Positions 4,703 to 43,889 of a DNA stretch of 64,000 nucleotides are shown in pieces. The stretch is taken from contig CAYTBK010000001.1 in NCBI GenBank assembly GCA_964436005.1, forward strand, positions 21,526-85,525, given 5' to 3'. Under the pieces are notes generated by a model. It worked only from the letters and a program-made list of their open reading frames with translations. It was not told the DNA's origin and did no database searches. The DNA is from an uncultured Acidobacteriota bacterium (GTDB lineage Bacteria; Acidobacteriota; JAAYUB01). Both the position numbers and the translations under genes were made by a program. Position 1 is the stretch's first letter. Each line of letters opens with the position of its first letter.

Positions 4703-5647
4703 ATGATGAAAGCGTGCAAAAAATCGATGGTGGCCCTGTTCGGGATCCTGATCTGCTGGTCGCCGGCCCTGCTCCGCGCGGCCGACCCGCTCCCCCTCGG
4801 GGACCTGGTGCGCAACCTGTCGCAGGCGCTGCACCGGGGCAGCTGGTTCCAGGACCGGTCCACCTACTATCAGCGCCTCTATATCGAGCGGTTCAAGAAC
4901 CGCCCGGTCGAGGGCCAGGCCCTGGCGGCCTTCTACCGCCGCCTCTCCGTGGCCGAAGTCAGCCCCACCGAGAAAGGCGAAGTGATCGCCCGCCTCGTTT
5001 ACGACACCGACGGCGACATGAAACCGAAGGATGTCAAACCCAGCAGCCGGAACGTGTTCGGTGCACCCGGCTTTCTGGAACTGGTCTTCTTCCCCTTGTA
5101 CCCCGAAAACGTGGAACTCTACGAGATCCTGGATCTGGGCGCCTCCTCCATCGACGGGGTGGAAACGCGCATGGTGCGCATCCTGCCCTGGCCCGGCGGC
5201 GAGAAGAAGCCCCTGGTGGAAGGCGTCTTCCACGTGGACCCGTACACCGGCCGGCCCATCCGCCTCTCCGTCACCCGGCTGCACAACTTCGACGCCCTGG
5301 ATTCCCGGCTGAAAAAGCTGCTGGAGTTCCGCTGCGAACTGGATTACCGGACCCTCCCCAACGAGGTTTCCGTGCCGTGGAAAGGCAAGGGGAACGGCAA
5401 CTCCGAGGTCATCCGCTGGAACGGGTTCTTCAATTTCACCTTCCATGAGTGGGACTTCCGCCCGAGCGCCCTCCCCAAGTACGCCGAGGTGAAGCCCTAC
5501 TACGAGAAAATGGAGGGGTTCCGCGACCCGGCTCCCCCCGACACCCCCGCGGTGGGCAATCGTTTGCCGGACGCGACCTCGGCCGAGCCGGCCGAAGGTT
5601 CCAATGGTCCGGTGGAAGAAGACCTGCCGGAAGGGGACCGCCGATGA
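4703..5647 (+). CDS. exported hypothetical protein (N-terminal signal peptide)
   Basis: 314 aa. The signal MMKACKKSMVALFGILICWSPALLRAADP was read directly. GAGAGG lies upstream. The stop overlaps the rsmD start (ATGA). Confidence 0.6.
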   Translation: MMKACKKSMVALFGILICWSPALLRAADPLPLGDLVRNLSQALHRGSWFQDRSTYYQRLYIERFKNRPVEGQALAAFYRRLSVAEVSPTEKGEVIARLVYDTDGDMKPKDVKPSSRNVFGAPGFLELVFFPLYPENVELYEILDLGASSIDGVETRMVRILPWPGGEKKPLVEGVFHVDPYTGRPIRLSVTRLHNFDALDSRLKKLLEFRCELDYRTLPNEVSVPWKGKGNGNSEVIRWNGFFNFTFHEWDFRPSALPKYAEVKPYYEKMEGFRDPAPPDTPAVGNRLPDATSAEPAEGSNGPVEEDLPEGDRR

Positions 5648-25444: not shown

Positions 25445-25523
25445 CTTTATCCTTCCTTGACCCTGCTTGGGGCGGCCCCTGGTTTTCGCAGCGGATCCTG
25501 GGGCGTAGAATCTGCCCTCAGTC

Positions 25524-27527
25524 CTACTCGCTGCGGATCCGGTTGAAGAGAATGTTGTACAAACCCCAAAATAGAACCCGAATATCCGTCAGGATGGGAT
25601 GCGCTTTCTTTTCTTGAAGATAACGGATTTCCGAATCGATGTATTCCTCTACCCTTTGCGTGCGGTACGCCACATAAGGGGGGATGCATCCAGGCTTTCG
25701 CTTTTGTCTCTCTGCCCGCAACCACTCCGGATAATTCGCCAGGAAGCGGTTGCTGAGAGGGCGCACCCCCACCAGGGCCATGTCCCCTTTCAGCAGGTTC
25801 ACCACTTGAGGGATCTCGTCAAGCCAGAACCGGCGTAAGAACCGCCCCCAGGCGGTCACCCGGATATCCTCCTTGACCTTGCCCAATTCACCATATCCGA
25901 ACAAGGAGGTCACGTAACCTTGCAGGTATTCCGAGTATGGGTGCATGGTGCGGATTTTGTAGACATAAATGAGTTTCCCGCCCTTGCCCGTGCGCTGCAT
26001 CTTGAAGAGCAGGCCCGAGGCGGGTTGTCGCCCCAATTCGGGCTCCCCGGTACGGCGGGCGCAGAAATGTACCGCACTGTCGTGGAATTCGATCCCGACG
26101 ATGGAAAACCCGCAATAACTGAGCCGGCCGAAGCCCTCGGCCAGGGAGAAGACCCGGGTTCTGCCCGGCGGGAACAATTGCCGTACTCTCCGGAGTAAGA
26201 TTATTTTCGGCAACAGACGGAACCAAATGAAATCCAAGAAGTAAAGGAAATTGGCCACTGCTCGCGGATAATGCTGGACATAGTGGAGGCGGCGCAGTTC
26301 GCAAGGCTGGAAATTGCCCAGGAAAACTCCTCCGGGAACAAGCTTCCGATGGACTTCCCGCAAGTACCGGTTGAGATCCCGCTGGGTATTGAGGCGGTGC
26401 CGGTTCATGAAGAACTCCATGGTCCCGTCAGGCATTACCTCGACATTGTAGGGATTGCTGGAGTCAAGAACCTCGGCCCGTACGATATCTACGGATTCGA
26501 TGTCCACCGTTCGTTGCACAAAGGCCATGATCTCGGGACAATCCTTCAGGTAAATATGTTTCATCTTTTCGGCAAACTGGGGGGAGGCTGAATCACGTTT
26601 CTCGAAGCGGACGGGGCCGGCGAAGGCTGCCATATGCTGGGTGACAAGCACATCTACCTTCGCCGCTTCCGCCAGCTCCGGTACGCGGAAAATAGAGCCG
26701 AGCTTCTCGCCTGGTTTCCCGAAAACGTAATAAAGGGTGACGAAGGCGAGTTCCAACACAGCCACGACGAACAAGGGCAGAAGATATCTCCTGGGTGAGG
26801 AACCGGTCAGCTTGAAGATATACAAAACTGCAACGCTGCAGCAAAGCACAACGGCCAAACTCTTCACATGGGGATATATCATTTTCAGGCAACTGGATTG
26901 CCATTCCAGCCGGAAGTGATGGATCAACAAGCCAGCAAGAAGCCATATGAAATAAACATAAAAAAATGGGATGGCTGAGGGGTGCTCCTCGCCGTTCAGT
27001 CCGAATTGGTTGATGTAAGCCAAAGTGTAAAGAGCAGCGAGCGATGACAACTCAAGGCCAAAAAAAGCAAAAGAGAGAAGCCGTTCCCTCCGGCTGACGC
27101 CTTCACTGAAAAAAGGGAGGTAATCCCCAGAAAGAAAAAGGATTTCCAACAGCAGATACAGAGAGAGTGCCCCATAGATGATGAAACGTGAAAGATCGAA
27201 GAGATCCGCCACATACAGAAACAGAGAGATCAGGCCCGCCATGTACAGACAACTGGTGACAAAGGGCGCCAGTTTGTGGCTCTGGCGGCGTTCTTGATCC
27301 AAGCGACGGAATTTGTCGCATGCCAGACTGACACTGGCCCAAGCGACAATGTAGACCAACATCAACTGTAAATAAGTGAGATCGATGGCTAATTTCTTTT
27401 TCTTGAGGCAATGAGTGGCCAGGAAAGCAACGAGGAGAAGGCAGAGGTCCACCAGATACCTTCGGGCAACCGTTCTGGGTCGGCCTGATGATTGAATGGG
27501 TGCCCACGATGGTCGGAGACCCGGCAT
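25524..27527 (-). CDS. initiating polyprenyl-phosphate sugar phosphotransferase (bacterial sugar transferase family) with atypical N-terminal architecture
   Basis: The C-terminal catalytic domain reads GKGGKLIYVYKIRTM...WLDEIPQVVNLLKGDMALVGVRP (KFRTM-type motif). It is preceded by about 8 predicted TM helices and a ~190-aa soluble region of unknown function. A good SD (AAGGGAGAAAG) is present. Confidence 0.75.
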   Translation of the reverse strand: MPGLRPSWAPIQSSGRPRTVARRYLVDLCLLLVAFLATHCLKKKKLAIDLTYLQLMLVYIVAWASVSLACDKFRRLDQERRQSHKLAPFVTSCLYMAGLISLFLYVADLFDLSRFIIYGALSLYLLLEILFLSGDYLPFFSEGVSRRERLLSFAFFGLELSSLAALYTLAYINQFGLNGEEHPSAIPFFYVYFIWLLAGLLIHHFRLEWQSSCLKMIYPHVKSLAVVLCCSVAVLYIFKLTGSSPRRYLLPLFVVAVLELAFVTLYYVFGKPGEKLGSIFRVPELAEAAKVDVLVTQHMAAFAGPVRFEKRDSASPQFAEKMKHIYLKDCPEIMAFVQRTVDIESVDIVRAEVLDSSNPYNVEVMPDGTMEFFMNRHRLNTQRDLNRYLREVHRKLVPGGVFLGNFQPCELRRLHYVQHYPRAVANFLYFLDFIWFRLLPKIILLRRVRQLFPPGRTRVFSLAEGFGRLSYCGFSIVGIEFHDSAVHFCARRTGEPELGRQPASGLLFKMQRTGKGGKLIYVYKIRTMHPYSEYLQGYVTSLFGYGELGKVKEDIRVTAWGRFLRRFWLDEIPQVVNLLKGDMALVGVRPLSNRFLANYPEWLRAERQKRKPGCIPPYVAYRTQRVEEYIDSEIRYLQEKKAHPILTDIRVLFWGLYNILFNRIRSE

Positions 27528-27578
27528 GCTATACTTTCTCCCTTTTCATTGACAGATTGGATGCGGAAATCTGCTCAC

Positions 27579-28907
27579 TCAGTTGCTGGCCTGCGCAGCG
27601 GAACAAGCCTGGCCTTCGTCCCGGGAAGCGTCTTTTCCCGCCCAGACTGCATGGGAAACGGCAGCACCCAAAAGCATAAAGAATATCGGCACGGTGACGG
27701 GGTTCGAATCCATCAGGGTATTCGCACCATTGAATACCAGCAGACCGATCAGAAAAATGAAAAAACTGAAAACTGTGTCCTTGCCCATTGCCAACTTTCC
27801 ACGCGGCCAAGAGCACTGCAGGATTTTCCCAAAAAATACCATCATGACAGCAAACCCTATGATTCCTGTCTGATAAAGAATGGTCACGTAATAGTTATGC
27901 GATGTTCCATAGACGGAACGCACATAGTGCCCCTTCAGGTCGTATATCTTGAACTCCTTCATCTGCCTACCCCACCCACAACCAAGGATGGGGTATTTCG
28001 ACCACTCCCGCAGGGTAGCCACGGTGCGTCCGACACGTATTCCCAAATTGGTGTTAAAGAACGATCTTCTTCCGGATACTGTGTCTTTCGTCTCAGCGAT
28101 CCTCTTCTTGTAAAGTTGGTTCACCGAAGGTAAGAACATCGCAAGGGAAATGGCAGTCACCAGCAGTAGGGTCAGACCCGCACCGTAAAGAACCCGTTTG
28201 CGAACGGCCTTTTCCGCCCGGATACCATATCCACAGACCAGAAGGATCATGATACCGAAAACGACAATGGTGCTCCTATGCTGGCTTCCGATAATTCCCG
28301 CCAGGGAAGCGGCGAGAAATGGGGACGCGCTGAGGAAGCGGCGGCGGCGTACCGCCACGGAGACGAACTCGAAGACGAAGACCAGGCAGCAGAGAACCGC
28401 GGTGCCATGATTCACGAGCATGAAGTAGGAGGCGGGAATGCTGACCCCCCGGAAATAGACGGTGGCAGGATTGGTTCCGGCCAAAGCGAGGCAGAACAGG
28501 CCGTAAAGCACAGAGATCAGGACATGGAACCGCACGGCCCAAACCAGCCATTTCACATCCTCTCGTTCGATGACACACACCAACCCAGCCAAAAAGAGGA
28601 GTGGGTAGATGAAAAGGTTGCGGAAACGGTCCAGGATAGCCAACAGGCTACTTTCTTGGATATAACGAGCGCATAGCATCAGGAAAGTGTAATAGACCAG
28701 AAGGACGGCAAAGACGAGCAACCAGGGCCTGGCCCGGTCCCTAGTTTCCTTCTGTCGCAAGCAGACCGCGGCAAAGCCCAGGAGGGCCAGGACAAAAAAA
28801 TCCGAAAGATAGAGTTTGATTCCGACTTCAAACAGGCAGTTGCTCAGAAGGGTATTGAGCAAAAGAAAAAAAACAAGGAAGAAGCCTGCCCGCTGCATTG
28901 GCCGCAT
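27579..28907 (-). CDS. O-antigen polymerase/ligase family protein (Wzy-like), copy 2
   Basis: It is a paralogue of the 16039..17349 product (LLNTLLSNCLF, GTSHNYYVTILYQTGIIGFAVMMV) and is polytopic. Confidence 0.65.
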   Translation of the reverse strand: MRPMQRAGFFLVFFLLLNTLLSNCLFEVGIKLYLSDFFVLALLGFAAVCLRQKETRDRARPWLLVFAVLLVYYTFLMLCARYIQESSLLAILDRFRNLFIYPLLFLAGLVCVIEREDVKWLVWAVRFHVLISVLYGLFCLALAGTNPATVYFRGVSIPASYFMLVNHGTAVLCCLVFVFEFVSVAVRRRRFLSASPFLAASLAGIIGSQHRSTIVVFGIMILLVCGYGIRAEKAVRKRVLYGAGLTLLLVTAISLAMFLPSVNQLYKKRIAETKDTVSGRRSFFNTNLGIRVGRTVATLREWSKYPILGCGWGRQMKEFKIYDLKGHYVRSVYGTSHNYYVTILYQTGIIGFAVMMVFFGKILQCSWPRGKLAMGKDTVFSFFIFLIGLLVFNGANTLMDSNPVTVPIFFMLLGAAVSHAVWAGKDASRDEGQACSAAQASN

Positions 28908-29303
28908 GTTTCCCGCCGTTAAAATGACTGGTCGCTTCCGGAGCTTTCACCGACCCGCCGGCGCCGCTCACTTCAGATAATCGGAATGCTACACGAAACC
29001 GATACCATGTTCAAGATCAGTATTGAGAATGGGTAAGGTTCATTTTCCATGAGAGGCCTGGCTGGCGAGCCAATGGGCTTTCACCGGGCTTCCCAGCTCA
29101 ACCCCACACGCCCCGAAACTCCAACCTGAATTGTCCCCGCTTGCACGTCCCCCCGCCACCGAGACGCCCGCAACGCGCAATTCCCTTGCGTTTTCAGCCA
29201 GGTCTTCGTAGTCTTCCAATGCTGTCGAATGAACGCTCCGAATGTTCTTTTCTCAAGAAAACCTGTGTTTCCGACCCTCTATTTCCGCCCGAAGGTAGAA
29301 GTG

Positions 29304-31781
29304 ATGACCCGTTGCCCGGCCCGATTTTTCCGACGAAAACGTTTCCCTCGGCCCGATACCGCGAAATCCGCCCTGTCCCATGTCCTCCGGCCATCGCAGC
29401 GTTGGTCGGCGCGGATATTGATAGGCCCGCTTTACTTCTGGCTGTTATTGCTGTCCAGCGACTCGCCCCTGGCGCAAAGCCTGTTCAACGTGAAGGCGCA
29501 AAAGCAGTTGTTCCCCCCGGAGAACCAGGCGGTGACCGTGACGCCACCCGCATTTTCCTGGGTTCCCGGGAGCGGGGTCGGGGAGTACACGCTGCAACTC
29601 TCTCCCTCGCCGGATTTCCTTCCGAAGCGGACGGAAACCTGGACTGGGATCAGACGGCCGGCTTTTGTCCCCAGCCATCCACTGGCCTCGGGAAAATGGT
29701 ACTGGAGGGTCGGCGTTCAAGGAGAAAACCGCTTCGGCCCAACCCACTCTTTCATTGTTCCCAAGAACACAAAGCCGTTCCCTTTCCCCGATTGGGAAAA
29801 AGTCATCCGCAGGACTCCCCGCCGACACCCGCGGCTGTTTTTTCCCGGGGCTCGGCTGGCTCAAGCCAAGCGGTGGGCGAAAACTGACTGGAAAACCGAC
29901 CTGGACAAGCTGGAATCCCGCTGTCTCAAGGAAATGGGGAGCCCCCTCCCCCCCGAACCCGGGCCCCCGCCCCCACCAATAGCGTTAGGGCCATGGTCTG
30001 TCCAGGTGATCCAAACGACACGCCCCCCCCTGGACCTCATGGAGAACTGCGCGCTCCTCTACCTGCTTCGCGGGAACCAGAGGCTGGGGCTTGAAGCTCG
30101 GCGCATACTGCTGCACTTCTTCTCGTGGGACCCGGACGGACCCACGAGCCAATCGTCTTTCGACGAGCCCGGCATGTGGATGATGATGCGCGGGGTACGG
30201 ACCTATGACTGGACCTTCGACCTGTTCTCGCCAACAGAAAGGGACCGGATCGAAAAAGTGATGAAAAGGAGGGCTCGCCAGTTTCTGGAACGCTTGCAGG
30301 CCCTCCCTTTCGAAACCAATCCATTCAGCAGCCATGCCGGACGGCTGCCTGGATTCCTGGGCGAATGCGCCCTGGCCTTCGCCGGCGAATGGCCTGAAGC
30401 GCGCCCCTGGTTGGAGTACGCAACACTCCTGTTTTTCACATCGTATCCGGCCTGGGGCGGGGACGAGGGGGGCTGGCAGGAAGGCCCCCACTACTGGAAC
30501 GCTTATATGTCCTTTGCGTTGCACTACATTGTCGCCCTGCGCAATGCGACCGGCGTCAACCTGGCCAGAAAACCGTTCTTTGCCCAAACGCCCTTCTATG
30601 CGTTGTACACGGCCCCCCCCTACCGCCAGTTCAGCCCTTTCGGCGACACTTCGGAACGAACGTCCTTCGGCAGCGTAATGTACGCATTTTCCTCTCTTCT
30701 CCGAAACCCACACTTACGTTGGTACGCTGAACACGAGCATACGGCTTTCGGGTCGGACCTGTTGAGTCTGGCCACCTGGAATCCAGGTTTAACCGCTCGC
30801 ACACCGATAGAGTTGCCACCGGCCCGGTTGTTTTCGGACGTGGGTCTCGCTTCGATCCACACGGCTCTGGGCGATGGAGAGCAAGACATCCACTTCCTGT
30901 TGCGCAGCAGCCCCTACGGCAGCGTAAGCCACGGACACGCGGATCAGAACGCCTTTGCCCTGGAAGCCTTCGGCCGCGGCCTGGCGATTGCCACCGGATA
31001 TTACCCATGGTATGGGTCCCCGCACCACGACCGATGGACCCGCTCCACCCGGGCCGTCAACAGTCTGCTGGTCGACGGGGAAGGGCAAGCAGCCAGGAGT
31101 TGGAAAGCCCAGGGCCGGATCACGGCCTTCGCGTCGACGGACGGCTACGATTATGTGGCCGGCGAGGCGGCCTCGGCGTATGCAGGGAAGCTGAAGCGTT
31201 TCCGACGGCAAGTGGTTCACCTCCGTCCTGGTGTGTTCGTCCTCCTGGACGAGGTCCAGGCCAAGGAGCCCGCCCGTTTCCAGTGGCTGTTGCATGCCTG
31301 CCACGAGATGCAGGTGCGGGAAGGCGAAAGGAGGATTCTCGTCCGCAACGACCCGGCAGCGATGGAAGTGATCCTTCTGGAGCCTGGAGAACTGACGTTC
31401 ACGCAGACCAACCGCTATATGCCGGAACCGGAATTGCCTCCTGGCAGCTGGGAAAACACCTGGCACCTTCAGGCGGAAACCGTCCCCCGCTCTTCGACAG
31501 GGCGGTTCCTGGCGGTGCTGCTCGTCCACCGCGTAGGGGAAGAACAGAATATGCCCCAGGTTTCGCCCCTGATTGCGACCGGCGGCAGTGGCGCCATCCT
31601 GCGTTATCCATCCGGGAAAACGGACCTGGTTCTATTTCGAACAGGACCGGAAGTTCGCGGAATCCAGCATGAGGGCATCCAGACTTCGGCGGAGGTTTAC
31701 GCGGAGGGAAGGGATGAAACGGGCGCCCTCTGTCGAAAGTTCACCTTCCCGCAAAACGAAGGACGCGATGAAACCCGGTAA
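29304..31781 (+). CDS. heparinase II/III-family polysaccharide lyase-like protein, exported
   Basis: The motif HGHADQNAFALEAFG and the family architecture are present. The signal-like segment is ARILIGPLYFWLLLLSSDSPLAQS. I chose the ATG at 29304 (GAAGG SD) rather than the track start 29229. Confidence 0.75.
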   Translation: MTRCPARFFRRKRFPRPDTAKSALSHVLRPSQRWSARILIGPLYFWLLLLSSDSPLAQSLFNVKAQKQLFPPENQAVTVTPPAFSWVPGSGVGEYTLQLSPSPDFLPKRTETWTGIRRPAFVPSHPLASGKWYWRVGVQGENRFGPTHSFIVPKNTKPFPFPDWEKVIRRTPRRHPRLFFPGARLAQAKRWAKTDWKTDLDKLESRCLKEMGSPLPPEPGPPPPPIALGPWSVQVIQTTRPPLDLMENCALLYLLRGNQRLGLEARRILLHFFSWDPDGPTSQSSFDEPGMWMMMRGVRTYDWTFDLFSPTERDRIEKVMKRRARQFLERLQALPFETNPFSSHAGRLPGFLGECALAFAGEWPEARPWLEYATLLFFTSYPAWGGDEGGWQEGPHYWNAYMSFALHYIVALRNATGVNLARKPFFAQTPFYALYTAPPYRQFSPFGDTSERTSFGSVMYAFSSLLRNPHLRWYAEHEHTAFGSDLLSLATWNPGLTARTPIELPPARLFSDVGLASIHTALGDGEQDIHFLLRSSPYGSVSHGHADQNAFALEAFGRGLAIATGYYPWYGSPHHDRWTRSTRAVNSLLVDGEGQAARSWKAQGRITAFASTDGYDYVAGEAASAYAGKLKRFRRQVVHLRPGVFVLLDEVQAKEPARFQWLLHACHEMQVREGERRILVRNDPAAMEVILLEPGELTFTQTNRYMPEPELPPGSWENTWHLQAETVPRSSTGRFLAVLLVHRVGEEQNMPQVSPLIATGGSGAILRYPSGKTDLVLFRTGPEVRGIQHEGIQTSAEVYAEGRDETGALCRKFTFPQNEGRDETR

Positions 31782-32529
31782 AAATACCGTCTGGAACCGA
31801 ATCAGGCGCAAGTTGTCACGGTGGATCGCTTGCGATCCCCGCGTGGAGCAGTTTTTCACCCTGCCGTTTCGGTTCTTCGATCAACGCGGCTATATTGTCA
31901 ACGAAAGAATCATCGAGATGCCGTTCATCTTCTCGGAATTGGGCGCCAGGCCAGGGAAACTCAAGATTCTGGATGTCGGTTGCACGAACAGTTGGTTGTC
32001 CATCTCCCTGGCTTCTTTGGGTCACGAGGTCTACGGAGTCGATATGCGCTCATATTCGTTTTCTCACCCGAATCTGGTGTTCTTTCAAGGGGATGTGCTG
32101 AATCTGAAAGAAACCGGCTTCGACGCCGTTGTCGCCCTGTCGACCCTGGAACATGTGGGCCTGGGCGCCTATGGTGAAGAAAAAGGAAACGCGACGCTGG
32201 AACTTGTGCTGGACAAACTCCACCATGCGCTTCTGCCTTCCGGAAGATTGCTGATCACCGTCCCGGCTGGGCAGCCGGAGTCGGACTCATTCCAGAGGAC
32301 CTTCGCCCCGGAGGAGATCGAGGGGATCGTTAGCGCTCACAACTTTCATCTCCTGACCGGACGGTACTTCCGCAGGCACGAGAATGTCCGGTGGACCCCC
32401 TGCACTGCTGACGAAATCCTCTGCATGTCCAACCGCAGGAAGCCAGGGCAGACGGAAAGCATCGGGTCCAACGGGGTCGCCTGTTTAATGTTCCAGAAAA
32501 AGGCCTCCCACCCGGACGTCCAGACCTGA
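31768..32529 (+). CDS. class I SAM-dependent methyltransferase
   Basis: Motif I is ILDVGCTNSW and motif II/III is VVALSTLEHVG...LLPSGRLLI. The start MKPGKNTVW overlaps the end of the lyase gene. Confidence 0.75.
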   Translation: MKPGKNTVWNRIRRKLSRWIACDPRVEQFFTLPFRFFDQRGYIVNERIIEMPFIFSELGARPGKLKILDVGCTNSWLSISLASLGHEVYGVDMRSYSFSHPNLVFFQGDVLNLKETGFDAVVALSTLEHVGLGAYGEEKGNATLELVLDKLHHALLPSGRLLITVPAGQPESDSFQRTFAPEEIEGIVSAHNFHLLTGRYFRRHENVRWTPCTADEILCMSNRRKPGQTESIGSNGVACLMFQKKASHPDVQT

Positions 32530-36659: not shown

Positions 36660-36679
36660 ACGGTTTCCGGAAATCCCCG

Positions 36680-36716
36680 GCGCCGGGCGGGGCAGCCCCC
36701 CTCCCGGCGCTTTTCC
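36680..36716 (+). terminator. GC-rich hairpin followed by CTTTTCC; putative intrinsic terminator
   Basis: GCGCCGGGCGGGG cagcc CCCCTCCCGGCGC, then TTTTCC. Confidence 0.5.
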
Positions 36717-37071
36717 TTCCTGCGTCGCTTCCCCGTTTCCGAGGCCGCCGCTAGGCGAGAGGCGGCGTACCGCGGCCCGTTGGGCGCATCCCCGTGTGCC
36801 GCGGGATAATTGCCGGCGCAACCGAGCATCGGCCCGGCAGGGCCGACGGAAAGTAGCCCGGGCGCCAGTCCCCGATTCTCTATCACCTCACCGGCGGGCC
36901 TCCTGCCGGCTACTGGGTAGGATTAACCACGAAACCACGAAGCGGCGCCGTCGGCGCCGGATCCCTGAGCCCGGGCCGCAGGCCCGGGGCGAAAGCGCCC
37001 GGAATCGCCCAGGCGGCCTGCCGGGCCGCGACCGGCCCGACCCGGGCGGAGAAACGGTCCTGGCCATGGAA

Positions 37072-37147
37072 ATCCATGCCCTCCGGGCAAAAGGCCCGGT
37101 CTCCCGTTCGTGGCCTTTGCGACCTTCGTGTTGCGGACAAACACGAA
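37072..37147 (+). repeat. imperfect direct repeat unit, copy A (~76 nt; ATCCATGCCCTCCGGGCAAAA ... GTTCGTG ... CCTTTG ... GTGTTG ... AAACACGAAG)
   Basis: It aligns block-by-block with copy B at 37467..37553, at roughly 75% identity. Confidence 0.6.
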
Positions 37148-37394
37148 GCGCACGACCAGCCACGAAGGGGGACGGCGAGGCTTGCGTTAAGATTTGCGGA
37201 CGGGAAACCGGTTGCGGGAATTGCCATGAGGCCGGGGCGCGCCTCTCCGCGTTCGGCGCTCCGGCGGCCTGCGCGCCGCACTCCTGGTTGCGCGCGGCGC
37301 GAGGCTTCACCTGCCGGCTTTTTCTCCGGCCGTCCCGGCCAGCTCGGGGGCGTGTGCGCGCATCGGCGATTCGCCACCGACGATGGATCTGGAT

Positions 37395-37458
37395 GCCCTC
37401 CGGGCAAGGATCCATCGGGGCAAACGCGCGGGCTATGGACATTCATGCCCTACGGGCA
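37395..37458 (+). repeat. two additional copies of the 13-bp dyad TGCCCT(C/A)CGGGCA (37395..37407 and 37446..37458), each preceded by AT
   Basis: Read directly. Together with 37077..37089 and 37472..37484 this gives four dyads in about 400 bp. Confidence 0.6.
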
Positions 37459-37466
37459 AAGATTCG

Positions 37467-37553
37467 ATCCATGCCCTACAGGCAAAACCCGGTTTCACCT
37501 CGTTCGTGTCCTTGGTGGCCTTTGTGTTGAGAAAAAACACGAGGCTCGCGGTG
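37467..37553 (+). repeat. imperfect direct repeat unit, copy B (~87 nt)
   Basis: ATCCATGCCCTACAGGCAAAA ... GTTCGTG ... CCTTTG ... GTGTTG ... AAACACGAGG. It contains a hairpin TGTGTT-gagaaaa-AACACA. Confidence 0.6.
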
Positions 37554-37653
37554 TTAGGCGGTGCCTGACACATTTGCCCACTTCCCCTTGCCCGGATATC
37601 GCATTCCTCAATAACTCATTTTTTATCTGTCGTTTATTTCATGCCGAACTTTT

Positions 37654-37671
37654 TTGCTAATTTTTTAGCAA
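37654..37671. promoter_or_regulatory. perfect 7-4-7 inverted repeat TTGCTAAttttTTAGCAA; candidate operator of the BlaI-family repressor
   Basis: It lies 66 nt upstream of the repressor ATG, in an AT-rich promoter region. A half-site-like TTTTAGCAG follows at 37682. Confidence 0.45.
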
Positions 37672-37736
37672 GGTGCTGAACTTTTAGCAGCGACCTGTCG
37701 TATCATATGCCGAAAACGAATGAACGGAGGTTCGGA

Positions 37737-38126
37737 ATGGCTCCCAAAGACGTGGAAACCCTGAGCCGGAGGGAACGGCAGATCATGGACGTCCTGTATG
37801 CCCGCGGCGAGGGCACCGTGGCGGAGGTCATGGAAAACCTGCCCGAAGCGCCCGGCTACTCCGCCGTCCGGGCCCTGCTCCGGATCCTGGAGGAAAAGGG
37901 GCGGGTGGTGCACCGCCAGGACGGCGCCCGCTACATCTACATGCCGGCCACCGACCGGGAAACCGCCGGCCGCACCGCCGCCAAGCGGCTGATGGCCACG
38001 TTTTTCGGGGGTTCCCCGGCCGAAGCCGCCGCCGCCCTCATCGGCGCCGCCGAGCGCCCTTTGACCGAAGAGGAATACGAATCTCTTCACCGCCTCATCG
38101 AGGAGGCGCGCAAGGAGGGAAGATGA
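37737..38126 (+). CDS. BlaI/MecI/CopY-family transcriptional repressor
   Basis: About 129 aa. The winged-helix region is RERQIMDVLYARGEGTVAEVMENLPE...RALLRILEEKGRV. The SD is GGAGG and the start is MAPKDVETLS. Confidence 0.85.
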   Translation: MAPKDVETLSRRERQIMDVLYARGEGTVAEVMENLPEAPGYSAVRALLRILEEKGRVVHRQDGARYIYMPATDRETAGRTAAKRLMATFFGGSPAEAAAALIGAAERPLTEEEYESLHRLIEEARKEGR

Positions 38127-40246
38127 CCGACGCAGCGCTCTTCATTCCCCTGGCGGAGTTCGCCTTCCGGAGTTTTCTCCTGTACGGCCTGGCCTGGGTC
38201 CTCTGGATCCGGATCCGCAAGACGGCGCCCCGGACGCGGACCATGTTCTGGACCGCCGCGGCCGTGGCGTCCCTGCTCCTCCCCGCCGCCGGACTGGCCG
38301 GGGGCGAAGGGAAGCTGGGCCTGCTGGTCACCCCCTCCTGGACGAAAGCCATCGGCGACACCCCCGCGGCGCCGGAAACGGTGCGGGCCATCCCCCACCG
38401 CAACGCGGAAGTCGCCCCCCCGGCCCGGCCCGCCATCTCGCCGGTCCAGCCGGAGGCGGTCGCCACGAAGACGCGGGGCCCCGTCCGGAAAGCCCACCGG
38501 GAAACGGCCCCGCGCCTCCTGTCGGCAGACGCGCGCAGCCTGGCGCCCCGCCCCGCCCCGGCGGTGTCTTCCGCCCCGGCCTCGTTGCCTCCGGCCCCGG
38601 CCGTCCAACCCGCGCCTGCGCCCGTGCCCGCACCCGTCCAGACCATGTCCGCCGAGTCCGTCGAATTCCTCTTGTGCTGTCTGCCCCTGATTTGGCTGGC
38701 CGGCGTCCTTTTTGCCCTGGGGCGCTGCGTGTACGCGCACATCCGCTTGAAATGCCTCATCCGCAAAACCATCGAGGCGGATGAGTTCCCCGCCGGTTCC
38801 CCCGTCGGCATCGTGCTGCGCCTGGCGGAGGCCGTCGGCGTGAAGATTCGGTTCGGCGAAAAGGTGCAGACGCCCCTGGCCGTCGGTTGGCGCCGCCCCC
38901 TGATCCTCCTCCCGACCGAGGCCCTCCTGTGGCCCCCCGAGGAGCTCCGCAGCGTCATTCTGCACGAGACGGCCCACATCCGGAACCTGGACATGCTAAC
39001 CCGACTGGCCGGAAAAGCCTCCTGCATTCTGGCCTGGTTCAACCCCCTGACCTGGAAGTCCCAGCAGGAAATGATCGCCGCCCAGGAAGAAGCTGCTGAT
39101 CACAGCGTCTTGCAGGGCGGGATCCGCCCCTCTGACTATGCACGCCAGCTCGTCTCCCTGGCCCGGGGCATGCGCACCGCCTGTTTCGCCGGCGCGGCGG
39201 CGCTCGGCATCGCCCCCCGCACACGTTTCGAGCGCCGTGTACGGCGATTGCTGCAACCCACCCATTCTCACAAGGAGCAAGTCATGAAGAGAAAATCCAT
39301 AGTCGTCATAGCGGCCGCCGTGGTCCTGGCCTTCGGCCTGGCCTGGCTCTCGCCCTTCTCGCCCCTGTCGGCCGCCTCCGCGCCCGCCAAGGCACTTTCG
39401 ACGGACACCGCATCCCTGCACCCGGAAACGCCCGGAAAACCGCCGGCCCCTCCCGCCCCGCCAACTCCCCCGGCCCCTCCGAGAGACGTCGACGATAACG
39501 ACGGCGAAGGGGACGTGAGCGAGATAGACGAACCCGACGAGCCCGAAGAACCCGAGGAAAACGATTCGGAAGAAGCTCGTCACCGGGAAGCCGAGGCCGA
39601 ACACCTGGAAGCCCAGGCCAAACAGTGGGAAGCCCAGGCCAGGAACTGGGACGCCAACGCCGAGCGCATCGCCGAATCCGTCTCCCGCTCCCTCGAGCAC
39701 CTGAAGGACCTCGGCCCCCGGATCCAGGAGCACGTCCGGCAGGCCTGCGCCCACATCCCCGACCAGGCCGCCCTGCGCGCCCAGATCGAGGAAAACATGA
39801 AGCATGTCCGGACGAAGCTCAACGACCCCGCCTTCCGGGAAAAGCTGAGACTCCAGATGGAGAAGGTGCGCCGGGAATTCCGGGACGTCTCCAAGGTGCG
39901 CGAGAAAATCCGCCAGGAGATGGAAGAGACCCTGGCCAAGCTGGAGAAGAAGGAAGCCGCCGCCTCGGCGTCGGCCAAGCCCGGGATCGCCATGGCCAAG
40001 AAGCAGGTGCGCGAAGTCATGGAGGGCCTCCTGGCCAACCCGGACTTCCCCCTGAGCGAGGTCCAGATCGACGCCCTGGAGAAATCCGTCACCGAAAGCA
40101 TCGAGTCCGCCCTGTCCGCGGCTTCCTGCTGGACGGCCCCCCCCGTGCCGCCGGCGCCCCCGGCCCTGCCGAAAACCGTGACGCCGAAGGCCAAGCCGGT
40201 TCCGCCGGCCCCTCCGGTTCCCCCGGTCCCACCGGCCAGGAATTGA
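38123..40246 (+). CDS. M56-family (BlaR1/MecR1-like) membrane zinc metalloprotease signal transducer with non-PBP C-terminal domain
   Basis: The start overlaps the repressor stop (ATGA). HETAH (HEXXH) follows TM3. After the last TM the C-terminal roughly 300 aa are Pro-rich, acidic and coiled-coil, with a PPAPP-repeat tail. No penicillin-binding motifs are present. Confidence 0.8.
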   Translation: MTDAALFIPLAEFAFRSFLLYGLAWVLWIRIRKTAPRTRTMFWTAAAVASLLLPAAGLAGGEGKLGLLVTPSWTKAIGDTPAAPETVRAIPHRNAEVAPPARPAISPVQPEAVATKTRGPVRKAHRETAPRLLSADARSLAPRPAPAVSSAPASLPPAPAVQPAPAPVPAPVQTMSAESVEFLLCCLPLIWLAGVLFALGRCVYAHIRLKCLIRKTIEADEFPAGSPVGIVLRLAEAVGVKIRFGEKVQTPLAVGWRRPLILLPTEALLWPPEELRSVILHETAHIRNLDMLTRLAGKASCILAWFNPLTWKSQQEMIAAQEEAADHSVLQGGIRPSDYARQLVSLARGMRTACFAGAAALGIAPRTRFERRVRRLLQPTHSHKEQVMKRKSIVVIAAAVVLAFGLAWLSPFSPLSAASAPAKALSTDTASLHPETPGKPPAPPAPPTPPAPPRDVDDNDGEGDVSEIDEPDEPEEPEENDSEEARHREAEAEHLEAQAKQWEAQARNWDANAERIAESVSRSLEHLKDLGPRIQEHVRQACAHIPDQAALRAQIEENMKHVRTKLNDPAFREKLRLQMEKVRREFRDVSKVREKIRQEMEETLAKLEKKEAAASASAKPGIAMAKKQVREVMEGLLANPDFPLSEVQIDALEKSVTESIESALSAASCWTAPPVPPAPPALPKTVTPKAKPVPPAPPVPPVPPARN

Positions 40247-40504
40247 TTCTGCCCCGGCGCCCCGGGCCCCGGCCCGGCGGCGCCGCCCCGAAGCCCGTCA
40301 CAAACCTTGCCTGAGCGGCGTGTTGGAATACCAACACGCCGTTTTTTCATCTTGGTGTTTTGGTGGTGAAAGGAACCCGGGCGACGGAGTCGTACTCCAG
40401 GGCGGCCTGGAGGACGGCGTCGCCGGAACTGAAGCATTCCGCTTGTGCGCTTTGTGCCTTCTGTGGTTGACTTTGACTTCCGGGCCCGCCGCGGCCCCGG
40501 AAAC

Positions 40505-40888
40505 TCACTGCTTTTCCATGACGAATTTCTGGCTGCTGGTGCCGAATTCGAAATTCATCCGGTTACCTTCGATCCGGAACCGGGCGTTGAATTTGAAATT
40601 CTCGCCCTTCTGCCAGTTCACCACGTCGCCGTCCACGGTGTAGGTGAACTCGTTCGACAGGCTCATCTTCGCGACCCGCAGTTTGCCGTCGGCCGTGAAC
40701 TCGTAAACGGTGTCCATGTTCGTGTCCGCTCCGGGGCCGCTGGCCTGGACGATCTTCCACTTGCCCACCAGCGGCGAGGCGGGGGCGGGACCGCCGCCGG
40801 CGGGGCCGGAGCCGGGTTCGCCCCTGCCGCAGGCGGGAAGGAGAACGAGAAGGGCGCACAGCGCAACGACCGCAGACAACCTGTTCAT
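40505..40888 (-). CDS. small secreted/lipoprotein-like protein
   Basis: 127 aa. The signal MNRLSAVVALCALLVLLPAC has a Cys at +1 after LPA. The SD is GGAGG. Confidence 0.65.
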   Translation of the reverse strand: MNRLSAVVALCALLVLLPACGRGEPGSGPAGGGPAPASPLVGKWKIVQASGPGADTNMDTVYEFTADGKLRVAKMSLSNEFTYTVDGDVVNWQKGENFKFNARFRIEGNRMNFEFGTSSQKFVMEKQ

Positions 40889-40899
40889 TGTTCCTCCAG

Positions 40900-41490
40900 T
40901 TACGGGAATTTCGGAATCCTGTTCCCATGGTAATGCGCCTCGACGGCGCGGGCGACGGTTTCCGGGTCCGGCAGCAGACCCCGCAGCCAGACGGGAACAA
41001 ACCGCCCGTCGTACTGCAGCAGCAAGGCATCAGGGCGGACGGAAAGGGCCCCGACCCGCCCCCACTCGTACCGCGTATCGTGCAGCCCGAATGGCTCCGC
41101 TTCGGACAGGACCAGGGCGTCGGCGTCGACCCGCAGCCCGACCCGCTCGCCGCACACGCACCCCACCAAAGCGGTCCAGAAAGAGGCGAAGAAAGGCAGC
41201 CAGACCGCCAGGCAGAGGGCGGTGGTCAACGCATCGAAGGGCGGCAGCGAGAGCAGGTCCAATGCATACGCTCCGAAAGCCAGCGAGACGAACCCGGAGA
41301 TCAGGCAGCGCGGAAAGGGCCTCTGGCGACGGAAAAACACGCCGGCCGGAACAGCGGCGACGGGCAGGACCGGGGCCTCGTCTTCCAGCGGCGCCGGGGC
41401 TTCGCTTTCCGGCGGTTCCAGTTGGCCGGCGGCCGGGGACAGGGCCGGGGCGACTTCATCCACATTGTGCGTATTCCATTCATCCTGCAT
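40900..41490 (-). CDS. hypothetical membrane protein (2 TM, C-terminal soluble domain)
   Basis: 196 aa with an acidic/Pro-rich N-terminus. It lies 11 nt upstream of the lipoprotein gene. Confidence 0.55.
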   Translation of the reverse strand: MQDEWNTHNVDEVAPALSPAAGQLEPPESEAPAPLEDEAPVLPVAAVPAGVFFRRQRPFPRCLISGFVSLAFGAYALDLLSLPPFDALTTALCLAVWLPFFASFWTALVGCVCGERVGLRVDADALVLSEAEPFGLHDTRYEWGRVGALSVRPDALLLQYDGRFVPVWLRGLLPDPETVARAVEAHYHGNRIPKFP

Positions 41491-41511
41491 ACTGTGGCCT
41501 CCTCGAGGAGG

Positions 41512-42585
41512 TTAACGCGGCTGGATGCTGCCGGTCAAGGGGATGCGGATTTCGCGTTGGCGCGGGCTGTCGGTGGCGATCACCAGTTCCCCGCTCCAGG
41601 GGCCCGGCGGGGCATCCTCCCCGACGCGCAAGGCGATTTCCAGCCCGGCCGCTTCCGGCGGGCCGCCGGCCGGCCTGGTCTCCTCCGGCTTCTCCCGTCT
41701 CGATACGCTCACCTGCAACCAGGGTGCCGTGGTTTTGGCAGAGGAAACCGAAACCGCCGGGTTGGCCACCAGGACGTAGACGCTGCGGGGAAAAGCCTGG
41801 CCCGGCGCCAGGGTGCCGAAGGACAGCGACGGGGGGTACGCGGCCACGTCCTCCAGCAGTTGGCCCTTGACGGGGATGGTCAGGGAGGGGAATTCCGGGC
41901 TGTCGAAAACGATCTTGATTGCGCCGCGGAGACCGCCGGCCGGCGCGCCCGCCAGGAGGCGCAGCTCGAGGGCAAGGGCGTCCGGCGACGTTTCCGGCAG
42001 CCGGTTCACCGCGAGGAAGGGGCTCCCCTCCACGCCGATGGAGGCCGCTTTCGGCAGCGGCCCGGCGTTGCACCGGACTTCCGCCTGCAGGGCCGGGTGG
42101 GCGAAGCGGCTCACCCGCCGGAAATCGATTTCCTTCGGCTCGCAAGCGTAGGGCGGGAGGACGGTCCCGTGCAGCTCCAGCAGGTACTCGGGCCGCCCCG
42201 GGTCGTCGCTCTGCACGTTGATGAGCTTGTTCACCGCCCCTTCGAACTCGGTGGAATCGAAAATGACGTTCACCACCGCCACGCCCCCCGGCTCGATGAC
42301 CTGCTTGGAAATGGGAGCGGCCGTGCACTCGCAGCCGGGCACCACGGCCAGGATCCGCAGGTCCGCCTCCCCCCGGTTTTCCAGGACGAAAGCGTGGCCG
42401 ATCTTGCGTCCGCGGATGACTTTGCCGAAGGCGTACTCCGGCGCCTCGCAGAAGATGGCGGGTTTGGCCGCCGGTTGCGGCGCAGCCGGGACGGCGGTTT
42501 TCTCCTGCCCGAAACAGGGGAGCGGAAGGAACATCAGGGCGGGCAGGACTCGGAACAACGATCGGAGGGAAGAAAGGGTTCTCAC
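41512..42585 (-). CDS. DUF1573 domain-containing secreted protein
   Basis: The GTG start gives the signal VRTLSSLRSLFRVLPALMFLPLPCFG. The DUF1573 core is FGKVIRGRKIGHAFVLENRGEADLRILAVVPGCECT. The 5' part of track ORF 41512..42777 is excluded. Confidence 0.7.
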   Translation of the reverse strand: MRTLSSLRSLFRVLPALMFLPLPCFGQEKTAVPAAPQPAAKPAIFCEAPEYAFGKVIRGRKIGHAFVLENRGEADLRILAVVPGCECTAAPISKQVIEPGGVAVVNVIFDSTEFEGAVNKLINVQSDDPGRPEYLLELHGTVLPPYACEPKEIDFRRVSRFAHPALQAEVRCNAGPLPKAASIGVEGSPFLAVNRLPETSPDALALELRLLAGAPAGGLRGAIKIVFDSPEFPSLTIPVKGQLLEDVAAYPPSLSFGTLAPGQAFPRSVYVLVANPAVSVSSAKTTAPWLQVSVSRREKPEETRPAGGPPEAAGLEIALRVGEDAPPGPWSGELVIATDSPRQREIRIPLTGSIQPR

Positions 42586-42815
42586 TTGTGTCTCCCAGGT
42601 CAGAGGAACTCCGCCGCCGGATGGACAGGGGAACCGCCAGTCCAGGGCTCTCGCCCTCGCGGTCCCGCCTTCCCGACAGACCTCCCGGCGGCGCTCGGCA
42701 CGGCTCCGCGGTTTCCGGCTGCTGGCGCCGCCATCATACCGGAAACGCTCCGGGAAAAAAAGAGAGCGGGGACACAAGCCCCGCTCTCGGTTCGTTCACG
42801 TGCCGACTCTTGCGC

Positions 42816-43889
42816 TTACGGCTGATTCTCGGCGAAGTACTCGTGGTTGTCGGCGTTGTCGATGGCCTGGCTGGGATTGCTCACGGCCAGGTTGTGGGCG
42901 CCGGAAGAACCGTAGACATAGTCGTCGGTGCCGCAGGTGACGTTGAAGTGGGTCATCTCATGCACCAGCGTGCCGGCCTTGCAGTCCGTACCCAGGGCGG
43001 GGGCGCTCCAGAACGCCTTGCAGACGTAGATCTTGTAGGGCTGCGTGGGGTACACGTAGGCGTAGTAGCTCTTCTTGCAGCTGCAGTCGTAGGTCACCGA
43101 CTTGTTGGTGAAAGCGTCGATGATGGAGTTGTAGTGGGTCACGACGGTGTTGAACCGGCTGGACTGGTAGGTGCCGAACCAGTAGGTGTACAGGGTGCTC
43201 CCGCTGGGGTTGGCCGCCAGGTGGTTCTTCGCCTTGGTGGCAATGGAGATCGCGTTGTTGTGCGCCGTGACCAGCGTGGACTGCTGGGCGGTGGTGCACT
43301 TGGTGTAGCCGCCGATCTTGAAGAGGGATTCGGCAGCCGGCGTCAGCTCGTCCGGCACGTTGGCGTCTTCCGGCAGGCCTTCGAACCAGAAGGTGGCCGC
43401 TTCGCCCTGGGGCATGGCCATACGGGTCACGCGTTCGGCATCGGCACCCTCGGCCCCCGCCATTTTCCCGAAGAGACCGGCCAGGCGGAAGCGGATGGAA
43501 TACTGCCCCTGCTTGGTCATGTCGTACACGTTGGAGGGGTCGAAGTCCACGGAGTAGACGCCGCCGGGAGCGATTTCCAGGTAGTCTTCCTCGGTGGGGG
43601 CGGCGCGCTTGACCAGCGGGCCGGTGTAGGTCACGGCCCCGCCGTTGCGCTGGACGGACAGGATGTTGGAATCGATGTCGTCAGAAGGCAGCTGCCACTT
43701 CAGGATATACAGGGTCTCGCTGCTGTTGTTCTGCAGCGTGAACCGCATGGTCAGCGGCTCATCGGGAGAATACCAGGGAAGTGCCTCGATTCTGCTGGAA
43801 AGGACAGGGCCGCGACCAGCCCCGAACGCCAGGCCAGCCATGGCCAGAACGAGAATCGACAACACGATGGCGGCAACCGAACGCTTCAT
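42816..43889 (-). CDS. M35-family (aspzincin, deuterolysin/peptidyl-Lys metalloendopeptidase-like) secreted zinc protease with N-terminal propeptide
   Basis: The signal peptide is MKRSVAAIVLSILVLAMAGLAFG. HEMTHF (HExxH) plus GTDDYVYG (GTxDxxYG) give the aspzincin signature, with Cys pairs. Confidence 0.75.
   Translation of the reverse strand: MKRSVAAIVLSILVLAMAGLAFGAGRGPVLSSRIEALPWYSPDEPLTMRFTLQNNSSETLYILKWQLPSDDIDSNILSVQRNGGAVTYTGPLVKRAAPTEEDYLEIAPGGVYSVDFDPSNVYDMTKQGQYSIRFRLAGLFGKMAGAEGADAERVTRMAMPQGEAATFWFEGLPEDANVPDELTPAAESLFKIGGYTKCTTAQQSTLVTAHNNAISIATKAKNHLAANPSGSTLYTYWFGTYQSSRFNTVVTHYNSIIDAFTNKSVTYDCSCKKSYYAYVYPTQPYKIYVCKAFWSAPALGTDCKAGTLVHEMTHFNVTCGTDDYVYGSSGAHNLAVSNPSQAIDNADNHEYFAENQP

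Follow-up and report, generated by a model that had tools for sequence, protein, structure and literature searches.

A BlaI/M56 repressor-protease pair with a putative dyad operator and a predicted helical extracytoplasmic tail in an uncultured Acidobacteriota bacterium

We analysed a stretch of 64,000 nucleotides from an uncultured Acidobacteriota bacterium (GCA_964436005.1, contig CAYTBK010000001.1, positions 21,526 to 85,525 of the forward strand), referred to as the window, whose numbering is used throughout. The subject of this study is a pair of genes on its plus strand, encoding a BlaI-type repressor and a membrane protease of the M56 (BlaR1-like) family, together with their promoter. 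A preliminary description, made from the sequence without database searches, had proposed a regulated-proteolysis module of the BlaI/M56 type, and the protein families and motifs found here support this assignment.

Gene pair and putative operator

The open reading frame of the repressor extends from 37707 to 38126. Translation most likely starts inside it, at ATG 37737, resulting in a winged-helix repressor of the BlaI/MecI/CopY family with 129 amino acids (aa; 37737-38126). This start codon is located 7 nt downstream of a Shine-Dalgarno sequence (GGAGG, 37725-37729) and agrees with the N-termini of aligned relatives, and the resulting length is also that of the gene called in a separate Logan assembly of this sequence. 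The second gene (38123-40246) codes for an M56 membrane gluzincin of 707 aa. Its ATG (38123) follows an AAGGAGG Shine-Dalgarno sequence at a distance of 5 nt and overlaps the TGA of the repressor gene (38124-38126) in the tetranucleotide ATGA, an arrangement indicating that translation of the protease is coupled to that of the repressor and that both genes form one two-gene operon. The operon is closed by a strong intrinsic terminator on the same strand (40313-40344), with a stem of 14 pairs, 8 of them G-C, followed by a run of T. The ATGA-coupled pair and its BlaI/BlaR1 architecture had been recognized in the preliminary description and are confirmed here; both proteins match their families above the Pfam cut-offs (PF03965 for the repressor, PF05569 for the protease).

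The repressor covers the full Penicillinase_R model PF03965 (positions 1-115; E 2.3e-23, 83.1 bits with a cut-off of 22.6). Among 8000 scored candidates for related repressors, 7979 reached E ≤ 1e-8; those with a named source come from metagenome-assembled genomes (MAGs) of Acidobacteriota and Planctomycetota, and identity to the aligned relatives is about 57-73%. The closest solved structure is BlaI of Mycobacterium tuberculosis (2G9W, E 0.005). The best NCBIfam match, in turn, is the CopY/TcrY model TIGR02698 (E 6.9e-10), as would suit a CopY-type repressor sensing copper or zinc, with the M56 protein having no part in signalling. This match reaches 39 bits, however, with a cut-off of 122, the operator described below differs from the cop box (TACAnnTGTA, PMC7253601), no copper ATPase or chaperone is encoded near the pair, and translation of the repressor is coupled to that of an intact M56 protease. 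Moreover, the repressor contains zero cysteines and therefore has no C-terminal CxCxxxxCxC metal site, so that the CopY reading fails. We rejected it as very improbable.

Two dyads precede the repressor gene. Dyad 1 (TTGCTAA-TTTT-TTAGCAA, TTGCTAAttttTTAGCAA, 37654-37671) is an exact palindrome with the core TGCTAA-N4-TTAGCA at 37655-37670. Dyad 2 (gTGCTgA-actt-TTAGCAg, gTGCTgAacttTTAGCAg, 37673-37690) starts 19 bp after the start of dyad 1. The perfect 7-4-7 palindrome proposed earlier is therefore exact, but it is one of two sites and not a single one. In a shuffle control, the palindrome with up to 3 mismatches gave 0.62 matches per window.

We compared the promoter with those of related operons, resulting in seven independent loci including the window (the others being L005/L006, L008, L010/L011, L012, L013 and L015/L016). 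The six fetched loci come from unrelated assemblies, one of them a Blastocatellia MAG, and their repressors are 57-73% identical. At the operon promoter, all six show two or more TGCTAA-N4-TTAGCA dyads; at L013 these are located upstream of an extra 403-aa gene preceding the repressor. The 19-bp spacing is found in five of the seven loci (window, L005, L008, L013, L015), and L005 has the same dyad 2 sequence as the window. Apart from the operon promoters, the exact core occurs nowhere else in the fetched loci. By our own estimate, a pattern of 12 specified bases should match by chance at about 6e-8 per position, which leaves practically no expected chance matches. The predicted recognition helix of the repressor, YSAVRALLRILEEKG, follows the pattern YSAVRA(L/M)LR(I/L)LE, which is kept in all seven repressors. 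Taken as a whole, the comparison provides strong evidence that the dyads are a putative operator, in line with the earlier suggestion of a BlaI-type site. A limited literature search returned no relevant report of the TGCTAA-N4-TTAGCA motif.

At five of the loci (L008, L010, L012, L013, L015), the left half of a dyad itself forms the -10 element (TAAnnT or TAGAAT), with a clear TTGACx -35 element 16-18 nt ahead of it. Bound repressor would therefore occlude the -10 element. In the window, the left half of dyad 1 (TGcTAATTT) resembles an extended -10 element, and an alternative -10 element downstream of dyad 2 is conserved between the window (TATCAT) and L005 (TACTAT).

Two of the compared loci show additional features. 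The L008 contig, from the Blastocatellia MAG, carries two BlaI/M56 pairs with HEAT-repeat tails, 4.3 kb apart (40-690 and 4830-5390). The first has three copies of GACGAA-N4-TTCGTC as its operator and adjoins a gene of the PF00144 beta-lactamase family; the second has two copies of TGCTAA-N4-TTAGCA. The recognition helices of the two pairs differ, as do their operators, which looks like insulation between paralogous switches. At L005 (3328-6000), a gene for a Peptidase_S15/PepX_C protein (X-Pro dipeptidyl-peptidase family) diverges from the operon and has the dyad-bearing intergenic region in common with it; this gene could be co-regulated by analogy to blaZ in the staphylococcal divergon. The window contains no divergent gene sharing the dyad region.

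The protease and its extracytoplasmic parts

The protease matches PF05569 (Peptidase_M56) over residues 166-352 (E 1.7e-21, 77.1 bits with a cut-off of 31). Among solved structures, a phmmer search matched it to BlaR1 of Staphylococcus aureus only (8EXS/8EXP), with residues 107-305 of 8EXS aligned. The catalytic core (38963-39100) consists of H281-E-T-A-H285 (38963-38977), the HETAH motif that had been pointed out before, and E322-x-x-x-D326, which follows at a distance of 41 residues, the same as in BlaR1 (H201, E242, D246). In the alignment to 8EXS, H281ETAH285 corresponds to H201-E-Y-A-H205, E322 to E242, D326 to D246 and Y339 to Y261, and an Arg-rich helix with an Arg pair in front of the fourth membrane helix aligns to the R293/R294 region. 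The zinc ligands and helper residues of BlaR1 have been defined by a cryo-EM study (PMC9834060). Judged from this alignment, the catalytic motifs are intact and BlaR1-like.

Hydropathy peaks at residues ~7-29, 40-60, 181-205 and 392-414 and Arg/Lys clusters flanking these helices on the side of the protease domain predict, by the positive-inside rule, four transmembrane (TM) helices with a cytoplasmic protease domain between TM3 and TM4. From this topology, the loop between TM2 and TM3 and everything after residue 414 are predicted to face outward. The loop (residues 61-175, 38303-38647) comprises 115 Pro/Ala-rich residues, is predicted to be disordered (predicted local distance difference test, pLDDT, <50) and occupies the position of the BlaR1 loop EL1, which has a role in BlaR1 (PMC9834060).

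The region after TM4 shows no beta-lactam-binding sensor, as had been stated in the preliminary description. No transpeptidase or beta-lactamase domain of Pfam matched the protease even at E ≤ 1, and the NCBIfam models for BlaR1 and MecR1, including blaR1_generic (68.5 bits, cut-off 400) and sensor_BlaR1 (23.5 bits, cut-off 1200), stayed far below their cut-offs and matched the protease part only. SxxK, SxN and KTG motifs are absent after TM4. Despite the Pro-rich spacer, the tail gave no match to TonB_C (PF03544) at E ≤ 1. The apolipoprotein A1/A4/E repeats (PF01442) reached 13-18 bits with a cut-off of 90 (E 0.0017-0.07), and LTXXQ (CpxP/Spy) did not match.

The tail comprises residues 415-707 (~290 aa); residues 421-707 contain 14% Pro and have a net charge of -14. 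It starts with a spacer (residues 415-504, 39365-39634), in which a Pro-rich run, PPAPPAPPTPPAPP, is followed by an acidic patch (~455-500) and by four 7-residue repeats, encoded by a 21-nt tandem repeat at 39581-39655. The helical core (residues 505-668, 39635-40126) belongs to no known family, and the protein ends with a Pro-rich part containing PPxPP runs (40127-40243). Proline is concentrated at residues ~436-453 and 661-707, the latter with 36% Pro. The earlier notion of a Pro-rich, highly acidic C-terminus of about 300 aa thus holds for length and proline content, but acidity is confined to residues ~455-500 and the helical core is charge-balanced, with amphipathic helices punctuated by proline. 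Two AlphaFold2 single-sequence models predict a tail made up of helices only, at 480-543, 548-566, 569-613, 619-638 and 646-668. A Foldseek search of the tail model in the Protein Data Bank (PDB) gave nothing at E ≤ 0.001; the best match (E 0.085) was to designed helical bundles, and BAR domains and coiled coils of chemoreceptors were also found below the threshold. The preliminary description had itself raised the objection that the tail might be a divergent penicillin-binding protein (PBP) fold. With neither a motif nor a profile match, an all-helical model and no significant structural match, we rejected this fold.

The closest homologue of the repressor, with 73% identity, is encoded at L005 (GCA_018001935.1, contig JAGNHB010000002.1) and is followed by a 647-aa M56 protein. 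BLASTP aligned the two proteases over the protease part only (49% identity). The helical cores of their tails are nevertheless 46% identical over 164 residues, with E 1e-21 in a local HMMER test. The L005 partner has a TonB-like PEPPEAPEPPE run in place of the spacer and lacks the C-terminal Pro-rich end; the PP-rich end described earlier is present in the window protein but absent from this sole tail homologue found. L005 is the one other genome in which the helical tail was seen, in searches of which the large ones lacked a positive control. A phmmer search of the tail against 1.84 billion representatives returned one match, P0204, and neither the protein itself nor the L005 partner. The P0204 match was limited to the Pro-rich/acidic part and resembles an acidic region of the EF-1beta type, and P0204 was rejected as a relative. 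A profile search of a 5.8-billion collection returned nothing, again including neither the protein itself (P0001) nor the L005 partner, whereas local HMMER recovers them with E 1e-176 and 1e-21, respectively. Because the large searches missed the query itself, their failure to return relatives is weak evidence and does not amount to absence. A genome scan with the whole protease found distant M56 domains only, and the one match from a metagenome scan (L009) was a false positive, namely a coiled coil at the C-terminal end of a valyl-tRNA-synthetase-like gene beside a biotin ligase. The M56 relative P0016 has an analogous Pro-rich run followed by charged helices but no detectable homology. In a limited literature search we did not find the helical tail described. 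We regard it as rare and as a candidate new input domain.

Other M56 proteins carry quite different tails. Among the partners of repressors with the same operator, the tail consists of HEAT repeats at L008, of a SecDF P1-head domain at L012 and of the helical tail in the window and at L005, and it matches no confident Pfam family at L010, L013 and L015. Tails among 82 M56 relatives include HEAT/Arm, TPR, ankyrin, TonB_C with CarboxypepD_reg, and DUF3738; a transpeptidase domain was found in none of the 82. A repressor and operator that stay fixed while the external tail is swapped fit a plug-in design for inputs.

Alternatively, the pair could be an indirect reporter of cell-wall or beta-lactam damage, a possibility that has been discussed for mycobacterial BlaIR pairs lacking a sensor. 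In that case the protease would receive the cue by way of the loop, the membrane or a further protein, and the helical tail would serve only for spacing or dimerisation. Sensor-less BlaR proteins exist in M. tuberculosis and M. abscessus, as cited in PMC13492132 and in a 2026 preprint (bioRxiv 10.64898/2026.08.03.742534), the nearest solved relative of our repressor is a mycobacterial BlaI, and at L008 one pair lies beside a beta-lactamase-family gene. That pair has another operator, however, and no beta-lactamase or PBP gene adjoins the pair studied here or carries a dyad in the window. Furthermore, the atypical pairs CenIR and PvmSR left beta-lactam resistance unaffected (PMC13492132; bioRxiv 10.64898/2026.08.03.742534). 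We consider indirect sensing of such damage unlikely.

TM4 (residues 392-414, 39296-39364) is kept in the L005 partner, and its surroundings (39266-39420) resemble a Sec signal peptide, with MKRK, a hydrophobic core and an AXA-type site (LSA|AS). An in-frame ATG at 39284 is located 6 nt after AAGGAG, and both this motif and the signal-peptide-like features are kept in L005. We set aside an internal start at this codon, since S. aureus BlaR1 has the same Lys-Glu pair as that encoded by AAGGAG and the motif may thus have a structural role. Signal peptidase might shed the tail. The tail might then be the output of the system and not its sensor: derepression would raise the amount of M56 protein, and signal peptidase would free the tail after TM4 as a periplasmic amphipathic-helix protein, for example a protective factor binding lipids or proteins. 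Such a role would suit the n-h-c layout and the cleavage site kept in L005, the weak resemblance to apolipoprotein repeats, which stays far below the cut-off, and the fact that the pair itself comprises the only dyad-controlled genes within 64 kb. Shedding of the sensor domain by signal peptidase has been proposed for S. aureus BlaR1, but is described there as turnover and not as output (PMC9834060). Moreover, repressors with the same operator are paired with very different tails, which fits interchangeable input domains better, and other targets may exist in the genome outside the 64 kb. An output function of the tail is accordingly quite improbable in our view.

Output and genomic neighbourhood

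The preliminary description had proposed a regulon probably including the operon itself, and possibly the adjacent secreted-protein cluster or the upstream repeats. Scanning the 64 kb with up to 2 mismatches revealed no dyad beyond the operon promoter; the single hexamers TGCTAA and TTAGCA occur three times each in total. Since no other dyad is present, autoregulation is the only output supported. The proposed control of the neighbouring genes and repeats found no support, since the operon ends in the terminator, the cluster is convergent and no dyad is associated with either.

The convergent cluster is located downstream of the operon on the minus strand (40505-43889). It encodes a lipocalin-like/DUF5640 lipoprotein, a 196-aa protein without Pfam match, a DUF1573 Ig-like protein and an M35 aspzincin, a member of the Lys-specific metalloendopeptidase family; none of these genes has an operator site. 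Upstream of the operon, about 1 kb without coding signal (36660-37640) contains a small repeat family. A unit of 110-135 nt is found at 37040-37160 and 37409-37556, with a partial copy at 37357-37415. Its core, TCCATGCCCTMCRGGCAAA, occurs 4 times compared to 0.08 expected, and each full unit terminates in a hairpin (CTTCGTGTT...AACACGAAG). A structured RNA in this gap is unsupported, with no match in Rfam and a fold z-score of only -1.5, and the repeats are not present at the orthologous locus L005.

A region further upstream (25500-32500), possibly obtained by horizontal transfer, has a G+C content of 49-57%, compared to 63% overall. Its genes form a polysaccharide-type cluster with a Bac_transf sugar transferase, a Wzy_C O-antigen ligase/polymerase-like protein, a heparinase II/III-like protein and a methyltransferase. 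This O-antigen-type cluster, together with the neighbouring DUF1573 and lipoprotein genes, suggests that the host is diderm. The layout of the tail, with a helical domain at the end of a Pro-rich rod, hints at a span across the periplasm.

Interpretation and comparison with known systems

We consider it probable that the pair is an autoregulated BlaI/M56 ("atypical BlaIR") regulated-proteolysis switch responding to an extracytoplasmic cue other than beta-lactams. By analogy to the family, the repressor, most likely as dimers, would bind the two TGCTAA-N4-TTAGCA dyads on the promoter and keep the operon off. The M56 protein would cross the inner membrane four times, with the zinc site (HETAH...ExxxD) on the cytoplasmic side and the 115-aa Pro/Ala-rich loop and ~290-aa tail, consisting of the Pro-rich/acidic spacer and the helical domain, facing outward. 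A cue acting on these outward parts would switch on the protease, which would cut the repressor in its C-terminal dimerisation region and thereby release the operon, as well as any dyad-bearing genes elsewhere in the genome. DNA binding and cleavage of the repressor, signal dependence and targets beyond the operon are all inferred from the family.

Several observations weigh against this interpretation. The Asn-Phe scissile pair of S. aureus BlaI aligns to Ile-Gly in our repressor, and to Leu-Asp or Leu-Glu in its relatives. The pair is thus not conserved in the subfamily, and the S. aureus cut site is not transferable. Neither the window, upstream of dyad 1, nor L005 has a good -35 element, and a consensus scan of the window called no sigma-70 promoter. 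The tail-only AlphaFold2 model, based on a single sequence, has moderate confidence (pLDDT 68; predicted template modelling score, pTM, 0.41). Finally, dyads within the 64 kb occur at the operon only. A loop acting on itself alone would have no output, and other targets are therefore assumed.

A further-reaching interpretation has two separate points: that the conserved 160-aa helical tail is an undescribed periplasmic input domain, and that a very large environmental BlaI subfamily has the TGCTAA-N4-TTAGCA dyad as its shared operator. We put this forward tentatively and regard it as rather unlikely. If true, a proline-rich rod would keep the helical tail at a distance from the inner membrane, and the tail would signal the condition of the outer membrane, of lipids or of periplasmic proteins through the M56 protease to the cytoplasmic repressor. 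The subfamily sharing the dyad would comprise at least 7979 relatives (E ≤ 1e-8) with many different input tails, and the regulons of thousands of uncharacterised switches would become predictable from sequence.

The concept itself is not new. A survey of ~15,000 M56 entries (PMC13492132, J Bacteriol 2026) distinguished 254 architectures. The commonest is an M56 domain plus a region without identifiable domain, TonB_C is second, and true beta-lactam sensors, i.e. transpeptidase-bearing BlaR, rank third with ~6% of the entries. About 96% of M56 proteins are encoded within five genes of a BlaI homologue, whose gene is usually the upstream one, and the survey concludes that BlaIR systems sense varied stimuli by a shared mechanism. 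The form seen here is thus the commonest one and the pair is fairly ordinary, so that the unusual architecture claimed in the preliminary description did not stand up, also in view of the 82 relatives without a transpeptidase domain. As for its description as an uncharacterised system, operator and tail are undescribed in our limited literature search, but the concept is known and represents the normal case for the family. Switches of the BlaIR type lacking a beta-lactam sensor are now seen as a large class of one-step transmembrane signalling systems, most of it unexplored; very few have a known regulon and almost none a known signal. The locus adds no new principle to this class. Its useful by-products are a conserved operator and a lineage-restricted tail. 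Paired TGCTAA-N4-TTAGCA dyads, often doubling as the -10 element, appear to be common to a large repressor subfamily of soil and sediment bacteria, and the motif could serve to scan complete genomes for regulons.

Among the closest known systems are BlaI-BlaR1 and MecI-MecR1 of S. aureus and Bacillus licheniformis. They share with our pair the winged-helix repressor and the four-helix M56 gluzincin, in which HExxH and ExxxD are 41 residues apart and are assisted by Tyr and Arg-pair helpers, as well as the external TM2-TM3 loop and the external C-terminal part after TM4. Further likely parallels are two dyad operators at the promoter and autoregulation, both predicted here from sequence comparison. 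In contrast, the class-D/PBP-like sensor with its SxxK motif is present in BlaR1 and MecR1 but not here, the operator contains TACA/TGTA there and TGCTAA-N4-TTAGCA here, and the Asn-Phe cleavage site is not conserved. Furthermore, the repressor gene comes first here, with the ATGA overlap, and no target such as a beta-lactamase or PBP2a is encoded alongside.

CenIR of Clostridioides difficile, a BlaIR pair without transpeptidase domain (PMC13492132), is the prototype of the class with an M56 domain plus unidentifiable tail. Like our system, it belongs to the BlaIR family, its protease ends in a region without known domain, and its signal is not known. The tail of CenR is shorter, however, and predicted to be disordered, whereas the ~290 aa found here include a conserved, predicted helical core of 160 aa. 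The CenIR regulon has been defined and comprises ~12 genes, whereas here the operon alone is visible within 64 kb, and CenIR belongs to another phylum; the organism studied here appears to be diderm. The mycobacterial BlaI/BlaR (Rv1846c/Rv1845c) and PvmSR of Pseudomonas aeruginosa (bioRxiv 10.64898/2026.08.03.742534) are likewise atypical pairs without a beta-lactam sensor, but their proteases are essentially devoid of an external domain, in contrast to the long external loop and long tail described here. M56 proteins with a TonB_C tail, finally, share the Pro-rich, Glu/Pro-type spacer after the last membrane helix, suggestive of a rod traversing the periplasm; they differ in that no TonB_C domain was detected in our protein, whose distal module is predicted to be helical.

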